From the IMG/VR virus record IMGVR_UViG_2537562189_000012, positions 1 through 47,704 of that record: 47,704 nucleotides of DNA; one strand, written 5' to 3'. A program made the position numbers. The stretch's first letter is position 1. Every line of letters starts with the position of its first letter. Source of the DNA: a virus. Its lineage: Duplodnaviria > Heunggongvirae > Uroviricota > Caudoviricetes. This document shows, piece by piece, positions 15,201 to 18,200 of this stretch.

Positions 15201-18200
15201 AACAAACAAATAGAGCTGCTCGCTAAGGGCCAGCAGTTTGTGGCTTGTGGTACCCATCCGGCAGGCGAACGTATTCAGTGGGACAGCGGTTTGCCCGGCG
15301 AACCTCTGAAAATTACATCTGAACAGCTCGAAAGCCTGTGGCAGCGTCTGGCGGATAACTTACCCGTGAAAGACAGCTATATCGCAGGTGCAGGACGTCA
15401 GCGTGACCTTTCCTGTGTTGATCCTTCCGCGACAGATGATGTCGCCGACTGGCTTGACGCGAACGGGTGGACTCTGTCAGTCAGCTCTGATGGTTCCCGC
15501 AATCTGAAACCGTTTCGGGATGAGTCAGAATACAGCAACGGTTGCAGCGAAACATCCATTAAGTATTTCCCAAAAGGGACGGGGGGATTTGAACAGGGAC
15601 ATTTTAAAAGCATGCACAACACCGATGCGGGGCTTACTGATGCCGACTGGCTGGAAGGCTACGGCTATACGCAATCCCTGTTCGAAGATCTCACGGTGGC
15701 TGAAGATGGCGATAAGCCTGAATTTACCGATATTAATACAGATATGACAGCTCATTTTCTGGAACGCTTTATCTACGTCATCGAGGGTGACCAGGTATGT
15801 GATCTTAGCCGACCGCCATATCAGTGCATGATGGATATGAAGTCGTTCAAAAACCTGATGGCGCCTTACCAGTTCCCGCCAGAAGGGAAAGGGCAACCAA
15901 CTCCCGCAACCAAACGGTGGATAGAGCATCGGCATAAGAAGATTGCTGAGACGACAGGCTATAAGCCCGGTGCGGGACGTATTATCGAGCGTTTCGACGG
16001 GCGGTTTGAGATAAACGAATTTTATATGCCTGAGCATCCACGTACAGCGGATACAAGTAAGGTGTCCACGTTCCTTAATCATATGGCGTATCTGGTACCT
16101 GATGCCTGGCAGCGCGAGTTTTTCATCGCCCGTCTGGGATGGATGGTTCAGCGTCCGGAGCGTCGATGCCCGATTTCTATTCTGCATGTGGCTACCGCAC
16201 ATGGTACGGGCAGAGGATGGGTCAGCCAGTTAATGGAGCGTGTGCTTGGTCCGTGGAACTGTGCTCGCACTCGCATGAAGATCCTGTGCGATAACCAGTT
16301 CCATGACTATCTGTACAATACGCTTCTATGCACCATTGACGAGGTGCGCGAAAACGATAAGCGGTATGAGGTGAACGATAAGATCCGCGATGTGCTGACA
16401 GAACCACGGTTTGAAGTGAACCGCAAATATGGCAGCAAAAAAACGATGGATATATACACTGGCTTTCTGTTCTACACCAATCACTTTGATGCGTTGGCGC
16501 TGCCAGAGGAAGACCGACGTATCGCTGTGCTGGGGGGCCCTGACTTCGCCGCAACTGAAGAGCATTACGCCAGCCTGTACGGCGCGCTAAGCGACAGCGA
16601 CTTTATCGCTCAGGTGTACTGGTATCTGATGGGCGTTGACCTGTCTCGCTTTAACTGGCAGCGCGCACCCGAGACGAAAGAACGCCTTCTGATGATTGAA
16701 AGCAATAAGAGCGATGTGGAGGCTGCTCTTATTGAAATCCTGGATAATCCTCCTGTGCCAGCAATGACTTATCAACAAATTGTTAACGCAATACTGGCAG
16801 AAGCAGGAATAGATGTAGAAATTAACCAGAAGCATATTACTCGCGTTTTGAAAGAAAGAACAAAGCGAGAACCCGTGCGCGTAAAAATTGACGGGTTTGT
16901 ATATAGGATTTGGATTCTTGTAAAAAATAACGATTTCAGCAACGAAGAATTGCGCGAAATATATAAATCTTGCGAAATTTTGCAATCTGGATTGTAAAAA
17001 GGTGACGGCTAGGTGACGGCAAAACGGTTAAGCGTCACCTTGAAAAGTATATATAAATCAATGGGAAATGTGATAAAGGTGACAGGTGACGGCAGAATTT
17101 AAAACTATATACGCGAGAGTGTGTATTTTAGGTATTATACGATCGCTTATATATAGAACTAAAATCAACCGTCACCTGTCACCTAAAACATCTTCAGGCC
17201 TTATATGGCGCGCTTTGCAGCAGGTGACGGATATGTAATTACGCGTCACCTAGCCGTCACCCGGAAATTAACTTGAAAAAATTAGCAAATAACTAAATGA
17301 GGATACGACGATGTCAAAGATATTCCGCCAATGTATGCCTTACGGTATCCGCAAAACAGCTGAGGGGGCTTGGGAAGCATTCAACAGAGACTACCAGCCC
17401 TTAGGGGAGGCTTTTTTCTTCAAAAGAGCACTAACGCAGGCCACTCGAGATGTGTTAGCGCCACCGCCGGTAACTCAGCGAGACGACTGTGTATGGCTGT
17501 ATAGCGACATTGAGCACCCGATGCACTCTGAGGCTTACTGGAAAGCGTATTGCCAGCGGCTTAAACATCTTTCTAACCTCAAAATGAAAGATGAACGGTA
17601 AGTAGCAAAACGTAGAGGCCAGCGTTATGCGTAGAGATATGCAACTTGTTCTGGAGCGGTGGGGGCGATGGGCGGCGAGCGAGGAATACTGTTCAATGGT
17701 TGACTGGCCCTCAATGTCGGTTACTTCCCGGGACGTAACCGACAGTGGCAAACCCGGTTGCTCTGACGAGGACGGAGCGGTGATTGATACCTGCATCGCG
17801 CATATGAGTATGGTTTGCCCGTACGATGATTTGCTGATCCTGGGGTTACGTTTTATAGGCGGCCTCTCAACGCGTGCAATTGCTGAGGCGATAGACCGTA
17901 GTCATCTTAGCGTACGGACATCCCTGAAGGCGTCTGAAGCATTTCTGGAAGGAGCTCTGACTCTGCAGGGAGTAAGGTTGGATATGGATCCTGAAGTTGT
18001 ACTACCTGAAAGGGTTGTGTGCGCACAAAAAAATATGTTATGGTTATAGCGTCTATAATTGTATGCTTACTGCTGAAAGGTTCCGATAACACCGGAACCT
18101 TTTTTCTTGTCTTCTGCTGGGAAAAATTAATAAAACAGGAAAGAAAAACATGACATCGCACTGGTTCAGTGTCAGCCAGTGGCAGTTACCAAACGAGGAT

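Follow-up and report, generated by a model that had tools for sequence, protein, structure and literature searches.

A ten-iteron array downstream of a PrimPol-helicase gene as the probable replication origin of a Shiga-toxin-converting Escherichia coli prophage

When Shiga toxin (Stx) phages replicate, their toxin genes are multiplied too, and no origins have been mapped in the non-lambdoid 'Eru' Stx phages. The question raised by the locus described here is where replication of such a phage could start. The window, a stretch of 47,704 nucleotides (IMG/VR record IMGVR_UViG_2537562189_000012, positions 1 to 47,704), is a Shiga-toxin-converting Escherichia coli prophage. Behind its gene for a 753-residue protein with primase-polymerase (PrimPol) and superfamily 3 (SF3) helicase domains lies an array of short repeats (iterons) at 17001-17261, which a preliminary description of the sequence had read as a likely origin. 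The reading preferred here, with a probability of about 0.8, is that the array is the replication origin, with ten 8-bp sites for the C-terminal winged helix of the upstream protein. Comparative sequence evidence shows the repeats to be binding sites of this cognate initiator, and we strongly infer that the array fires as an origin; the earlier origin reading is supported in this form.

The ten repeats have the form GGTGAC[G/A][G/C], five on each strand. Plus-strand copies start at 17001, 17012, 17078, 17085 and 17223, minus-strand copies at 17032, 17169, 17176, 17243 and 17254. Six copies are exact GGTGACGG, and the variants GGTGACAG and GGTGACGC are present twice each, which gives exactly ten. 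The preliminary description had counted at least nine copies in both orientations within about 260 bp, a claim borne out by the six exact copies and four one-mismatch variants, and both members of the mirrored pair that it had pointed out are present, GGTGACAGGTGACGG (17078-17092) and CCGTCACCTGTCACC (17169-17183). The whole window holds 12 exact copies of GGTGACGG against 1.83 expected, and none of the shuffled sequences reached 12. The background of matches with at most one mismatch is 0.49 per 261 bp, which gives a Poisson P of about 1e-10 for the array; the next densest 261-bp stretch in the window holds five matches, all within structural genes. No other repeat array was found in the early region 11000-18400.

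Six more exact copies of GGTGACGG lie outside the array, at 28052, 30925, 36715, 38964, 39680 and 39788, all on the plus strand and in structural genes. An apparent enrichment at 39.3-39.8 kb was considered as a second cluster like the crr site of phage P4 and rejected: it consists of single plus-strand copies in the J-like open reading frame (ORF) 39189..42707, four of five in one frame. The copies outside the array look like a coding-sequence effect rather than binding sites.

The array starts 4 nt past the TAA stop of the initiator gene, in agreement with its earlier placement directly downstream of the prim-pol gene. Three plus two repeats are followed by an A+T-rich centre and two plus three repeats, and the inner pairs face one another. 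Taken as a whole, the array has a single nested dyad symmetry centred near 17131, a feature unmentioned in the preliminary description, with outer arms of 40 nt (17001-17040 / 17222-17261) and inner arms of 35 nt (17077-17111 / 17150-17184). The left inner iterons are offset by 7 bp, share one G and are directed to the centre. The intervening DNA had been called AT-rich, and its composition is given segment by segment in Table 1. It had also been said to lack coding potential; a single ORF spans the array, 17086..17238 (50 aa, GTG start), and is judged not to be coding because 1- and 2-nt indels break its frame in close relatives. The right spacer is not a mirror of the left one, and its CCTTA is without a left counterpart. 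Two motifs in the centre, TATATACGCGAGA (17106-17118) and TTATATATAGAAC (17147-17159), are partly inverted copies of each other. In the alignment of relatives, TATATACGCGAGA and the ATATA within TTATATATAGAAC are invariant or at least 90% conserved over six repeat types and all genera. Their independence of repeat type makes it probable that some invariant component of the machinery uses these motifs, either to melt the DNA or to start primers. No match to the DnaA-box or IHF consensus was found in 16950-17320, where GATC occurs once. Between the final repeat and orf96, the stretch 17262-17310 (AACTTGAAAAAATTAGCAAATAAC) is conserved in many relatives, including ones that have another ORF downstream, and may be a regulatory or ribosome-binding region.

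Ninety related loci were fetched, along with four from annotated records. Counted as relatives were 22 distinct full-length sequences with a native C-terminus and 58-100% protein identity; the named genome contigs among them belong to E. coli, Serratia, Erwinia, Izhakiella and Xenorhabdus, and the others are viral contigs. Exactly ten repeats are present in 22/22 relatives, at the same offsets from the stop codon (sign giving the strand): +4, +15, -35, +81, +88, about -174, -181, +228, -248 and -259. Across the relatives the repeat sequence fits GGTNNCNG and falls into six types, namely GGTGACGG (the type of the window), GGTGACAG, GGTGTCAG, GGTGGCAG, GGTAACAG and GGTTGCAG. Within one locus all ten copies share the type, and the ten switch in concert.

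The domain order of the initiator is an N-terminal PrimPol domain of the archaeo-eukaryotic primase (AEP) kind, a central SF3 helicase of the type of NrS-1, D5 and the PriRep of Staphylococcus aureus pathogenicity islands (SaPI), and a predicted C-terminal winged helix. Pfam places PF09250 Prim-Pol at residues 75-185 and PF19263 DUF5906 at residues 488-595, the protein matches PHROG 1156 'DNA primase', and residues 456-659 match the NrS-1 helicase 6k9c (phmmer, E 5.6e-8). A PDB sequence search with the whole protein returned the NrS-1 helicase only, without P4 alpha or SaPI Rep. No Toprim domain was found in the protein, the N-terminus of which belongs to the PF09250 AEP family. An AlphaFold2 model of residues 330-753 (pLDDT, predicted local distance difference test, 87) was compared by Foldseek and matched the NrS-1 C-terminal region (E 2e-20, template modelling (TM) score 0.65) and the SaPI5 primase-helicase 7ola (E 5e-9, TM 0.53), and also African swine fever virus PrimPol and poxvirus D5/E5. 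These fold matches belong to helicase superfamily III (PMC7102993, PMC9371898).

The repeat type follows a few residues of this protein. Among 26 sequences, the six columns that best predict it are residues 714, 715, 721, 722, 723 and 725, all in the predicted wing. At residues 721-723, FVY goes with GGTGACGG, IAQ with GGTGACAG, [C/F/S]T[N/Q] with GGTGTCAG, [M/L/D]T[V/L] with GGTGGCAG, [M/I]GY plus a one-residue insertion with GGTAACAG, and KTE with GGTTGCAG. The six wing variants pair perfectly with the six repeat types and are uncoupled from the flanking genes, and wing and array are closely linked. E. coli proteins of different types are 97-98% identical, with nearly all differences in residues ~703-746. 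One repeat type recurs with backbones whose identity to the window protein is 68% and 98%, and backbones that are 97-100% identical carry three repeat types. The six wing residues named above are the putative specificity determinants.

Natural recombinants separate the repeat type from its neighbourhood. In locus L002, identity to the window is 99.2% across 1 kb on the upstream side (cI/cro) and 99.75% across 800 bp on the downstream side (orf96, Q); despite these near-identical flanks, L002 carries GGTGGCAG repeats and a different wing. Loci L019 and L031 have the cI/cro of the window but GGTAACAG repeats; L001, L014 and L026 have unrelated cI/cro with the repeat type of the window; L003 and L004 share a repeat type within unrelated flanks. 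Because the repeat type follows only the wing residues of the PrimPol protein, and not cI, cro, orf96 or Q, that protein is the apparent binding partner of the repeats. That the repeats are instead sites for another phage protein (CI, Cro, the orf96 product or Q), or a packaging or partition site, is most improbable: two helix-turn-helix genes, cI and cro, do lie nearby, and orf96 has no known function, but the uncoupling in the recombinants speaks against all of these proteins, and in an annotated relative the terminase and structural genes are several kb downstream. For orf96, neither a Pfam nor a PHROG match was found, and its position is occupied by unrelated ORFs in relatives with the same repeat type.

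E. coli prophages that are otherwise ~99% identical diverge strongly in one block only, which comprises the wing codons and the whole array. Differences per 60 bp rise from 0-3 to 11-25 at about 16836, and in the comparisons of the window with L002 and L015 they are back to 1-4 per 60 bp just past the last repeat; a conserved dip lies inside the block at 16956-17015. Since the divergence is confined to about 16840-17262, wing and array appear to form one exchangeable specificity cassette that is inherited together and exists in at least six mutually distinct specificities.

Several points weigh against the array being an initiator-bound origin. Its origin function is itself reached by inference. 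The wing codons and the array are less than 150 bp apart, and the covariation is not fully independent evidence because physical linkage alone would co-transmit the two; function is favoured by two things that linkage leaves unexplained, the joint change of all ten copies and the sharp cassette borders. One relative, L037 (IMGVR_UViG_2528768011_000002, gene end about 4106), has no array after the gene. It was considered as a counter-example, a family member lacking the array, and is read as a deletion derivative instead because its C-terminal tail is altered and the gene directly abuts a Q-like gene; the gene 3' end, the origin and orf96 seem to have been lost by deletion, and the prophage is possibly replication-defective. 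Finally, the array folds into a very stable hairpin or cruciform.

The last point could mean that the stem-loop formed from the dyad is what matters and that the 8-mers are merely its paired arms, as in the structure-specific element proposed for the Sulfolobus plasmid pRN1. The single strand 16995-17270 folds at -56.5 kcal/mol (z = -8.7), and the dyad partly reaches beyond the repeats, with spacer columns 68-69% complementary and a few two-sided changes. In pRN1, a ~100-nt stem-loop 3' of orf904 is essential for replication, the encoded protein has the same domain architecture, and the same has been suggested for Bordetella phage BIP-1 (Berkner et al. 2014, PMC4234260). A hairpin, however, needs only complementarity between partner arms, yet all five arm pairs share one 8-mer; a stem-loop alone also leaves unexplained the direct repeats inside one arm (17001/17012, 17078/17085). 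All ten copies change to the same new 8-mer per lineage, a change that tracks the wing residues, and the repeat columns are 97-98% complementary while the spacers are much less so. No Rfam family matched the region, the scan of 16800-17500 with E up to 1 giving only two chance microRNA matches. A purely structural element is thus unlikely. DNA structure may contribute or assist but is not sufficient alone, and protein-bound repeats and cruciform extrusion can coexist.

The pRN1 and BIP-1 systems share with the window the order PrimPol, SF3 helicase, winged helix (PMC2777425, PMC4234260) and, in pRN1, an essential dyad-symmetric element just 3' of the gene for the replication protein. Published descriptions give this pRN1 element as a stem-loop of about 100 nt without iterons, for which no specific binding site was found (PMC2777425, PMC4234260), whereas discrete repeated 8-mers covary with the wing here, hairpin formation being possible in addition.

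An initiator-bound array at this position has a counterpart in the SaPI islands. Their origins have 6-12 iterons just after the rep ORF, half on each side of an A+T-rich centre (Ubeda 2007, 2012, reviewed by Qiao et al. 2022, PMC9371898), and on either side two or more of them are oppositely directed. The initiator is a self-loading SF3-type helicase with a C-terminal winged helix, the nearest structural relative of which is NrS-1 (PMC9371898), and each SaPI initiator acts on its own origin only. The window has an SF3/NrS-1-like initiator-helicase with a predicted C-terminal winged helix and iterons directly downstream of the ORF, five plus five repeats around an A+T-rich centre with opposed inner pairs (17078+/17085+ and 17169-/17176-), and putative type-specific initiator/origin pairs; a primase fused to the helicase is also known from SaPI5. 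At the sequence level, the published description of SaPI origins thus appears to be matched on every point, and the earlier remark that the layout is typical of initiator-binding origins holds, the layout being that of SaPI Rep origins (PMC9371898). Unlike SaPI, the element here belongs to a full temperate Stx phage of a Gram-negative host and not to a satellite, its iterons are 8-mers as opposed to 5-6-mers, and the nested dyad has a rigid 3+2 | 2+3 arrangement that begins 4 nt past the stop codon. No sequence-level similarity of the 753-aa protein to SaPI Rep was detectable.

Phage P4 requires two separated cis sites, ori and crr, whereas the window has a single array in 47.7 kb. P4 is likewise an enterobacterial mobile element with primase, SF3 helicase and winged helix in one polypeptide, but its primase is of the DnaG/Toprim type and not an AEP PrimPol. 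The P4 alpha protein combines these domains with binding of its winged helix to short repeats at ori (Ziegelin and Lanka 1995; Yeo 2002; cited in PMC4234260, PMC2777425). The DNA-binding domain of P4 alpha was absent among the top fold matches. A P4-type system was rejected on account of the AEP primase and of one array instead of ori plus crr.

In phage lambda the iterons lie within the O gene, and O and P recruit the host DnaB. Lambda resembles the window in its phage-specific initiator/iteron pairs, which form a recombination module, and in an early right operon upstream of Q; work by Kozlowska in 2020 is said to give an example of such O/ori specificity classes in lambdoid and Stx phages. 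The window differs in that O and P genes are absent, the array is intergenic and the initiator itself bears helicase and primase, and a lambda O/P-type origin was rejected on the first two of these grounds. Also rejected was a classical iteron plasmid origin of the RepA/pi type, with 17-22-bp direct repeats, DnaA boxes and a one-sided A+T-rich DNA-unwinding element; the repeats here are 8 bp long, in both orientations around A+T-rich DNA, and no DnaA box is present. Short inverted repeats on both sides of A+T-rich DNA are bound by SV40 large T antigen and papillomavirus E1, which assemble as head-to-head double hexamers. They are SF3 helicase-initiators as well, but their origin-binding domains are unrelated and N-terminal to the helicase, and their hosts are eukaryotic. 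Both proteins have been named as SF3 helicases (PMC7102993, PMC4234260).

In a sister family of prophage initiators (L010-L012, L038-L091), the PrimPol N-terminus is shared, at 58-98% identity over 330 aa, but the ATPase is of the VapE kind (PF05272) and the C-terminus is different. Their genes, too, have inverted repeat arrays directly after the stop, specific to each type and with ATATATA in the centre (e.g., L041 about 5188-5520, L038 about 5221-5550), and roughly fifteen repeat types track C-terminal 'GKxxxxW/F' residues. The sequences of this family thus show what seems to be the same logic with other repeats.

In the proposed mechanism, induction would lead to synthesis of the protein from the rightward early operon that starts beside the divergent cI gene, and the winged helix would read GGTGAC[G/A]G; both steps have support from the sequence comparison. 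Of the positions in the site, the constant GGT..C.G are probably read by the conserved recognition helix and the three variable ones probably by wing residues 714-715, 721-723 and 725. Protomers on the two mirror halves (3+2 sites each) would nucleate two head-to-head hexameric helicase rings with no need of a separate loader, and the A+T-rich 76-bp centre with its conserved TATATACG motifs would melt. The PrimPol domain would then prime on the exposed strands, and replication would proceed bidirectionally, probably with the phage DNA polymerase. The early transcript passing through the array may aid opening. Assembly, melting and priming are proposed by analogy with SaPI Rep (PMC9371898), P4 alpha, pRN1 ORF904 (PMC2777425, PMC4234260) and viral SF3 initiators (PMC7102993).

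The leftward operon encodes the phage's own DNA polymerase (6028..8091, minus strand, phrog_17, 687 aa) and an exonuclease (9739..11040, minus strand, phrog_69, 433 aa). Together with the PrimPol-helicase, these enzymes are a largely self-contained replication set, unlike that of lambda O/P phages.

One more alternative is suggested by where the array lies in the early rightward operon, with the initiator gene before it and Q and stxAB behind it. Binding of the initiator could serve as an autoregulatory or roadblock element that controls early read-through into Q and hence stx, or the array could be a copy-control or incompatibility locus with the origin elsewhere. The promoter and terminator scan of 16500-18400 gave nothing above shuffles and no terminator in or beside the array, so that a protein roadblock would be the only barrier there. 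Such a purely regulatory role is nevertheless quite unlikely, as no other candidate origin array is present in 11000-18400 or elsewhere in the window, an A+T-rich centre that lies between inward-facing sites and has conserved motifs independent of repeat type is the anatomy of an origin and not of an operator, and the SaPI precedent puts the origin at exactly the same spot. Gating as a side-effect of the origin, or a roadblock side function upstream of Q, is possible.

The coordinates of the module and its neighbours are summarized in Table 1. The interval from cro to Q holds the PrimPol gene and orf96 only. Four deposited 'Escherichia phage vB_EcoM' genomes contain this module at 98% identity, with the 753-aa gene annotated only as hypothetical, and the module is present in 45/5,426 complete E. 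coli genomes, in some of which it adjoins stx2b. It corresponds to the 'Eru10' non-lambdoid Stx-phage type, which has between cI and stx only a PF09250 primase-polymerase protein and Q (PMC8951638). Two terminator-like hairpins with T-runs between Q and stxA (18075-18103 and 18310-18327) sit where Q-dependent late terminators are expected in Stx phages. An inverted repeat (18+18 nt, zero spacer, 89% complementary) lies inside the Q coding sequence at 17712-17747.

Table 1. Features of the initiator/array module and neighbouring genes, in positions of the window
Feature	Position	Strand	Remarks
cI repressor	13771..14451	-	helix-turn-helix and S24 peptidase
cro-like gene	14445..14732		helix-turn-helix
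PrimPol/SF3-helicase/winged-helix initiator gene	14736..16997	+	753 aa; TAA stop 16995-16997
Predicted recognition helix and beta-hairpin wing (codons)	16827..16916	+	helix residues ~698-709, wing residues ~714-727
Apparent specificity cassette	16840..17262		about 420 bp; wing codons and whole array
Gap between initiator gene and orf96			313 bp; holds the repeat array
Left outer cluster	17001..17039		iteron 1 (17001-17008 +), iteron 2 (17012-17019 +), 12-bp spacer, iteron 3 (17032-17039 -, GGTGACGC)
Left spacer	17040..17077		about 78% A+T (measured 17042-17077); AAATCA partly conserved in the alignment of relatives
Left inner pair	17078..17092	+	iteron 4 (17078-17085, GGTGACAG), iteron 5 (17085-17092)
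Central region	17093..17168		76 bp, 72% A+T; proposed DNA-unwinding element
Right inner pair	17169..17183	-	iteron 6 (17169-17176), iteron 7 (17176-17183, GGTGACAG); mirrors left inner pair
Right spacer	17184..17222		54% A+T; conserved CCTTA 17199-17203
Right outer cluster	17223..17261		iteron 8 (17223-17230 +), 12-bp spacer, iteron 9 (17243-17250 -, GGTGACGC), iteron 10 (17254-17261 -); mirrors left outer cluster
orf96	17311..17601		
Antiterminator Q	17627..18049		
stxA	18387..19346		Pfam RIP
stxB	19359..19622		

No earlier description of this origin was found in the literature searched for the Stx phage group and related initiators. The papers on Eru Stx phages that were consulted (including PMC8951638) deal with genes only and mention neither iterons nor a replication origin, and for NrS-1, recognition of the origin through the C-terminal domain is said to have been left unaddressed (PMC9371898). 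The design as such is already known from SaPI islands and phage P4 and is unsurprising to a replication specialist.

A wider joint reading is offered tentatively and is on the doubtful side. The ~420-bp cassettes would be evolved orthogonal initiator/origin pairs, six here and roughly fifteen types in the PrimPol-VapE sisters, in which a few wing residues re-program three bases of the 8-bp site. Selection for autonomous replication of prophages and satellites that share a host would maintain their diversity. With the origin placed between the early promoter and Q-stx, its firing, or its occupancy by the initiator, would also control when, or in what dose, Shiga toxin is expressed. The six wing variants with their matched repeats provide a specificity table for winged-helix engineering and orthogonal replicons. 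For the phages themselves, the array is the first concrete candidate origin and initiator-binding site for the non-lambdoid PrimPol ('Eru10') Stx-phage type, and with it the SaPI/P4 design, in which a self-loading helicase is paired with iterons downstream of its gene, would extend to the NrS-1-like PrimPol-helicases found in prophages of enterobacteria.

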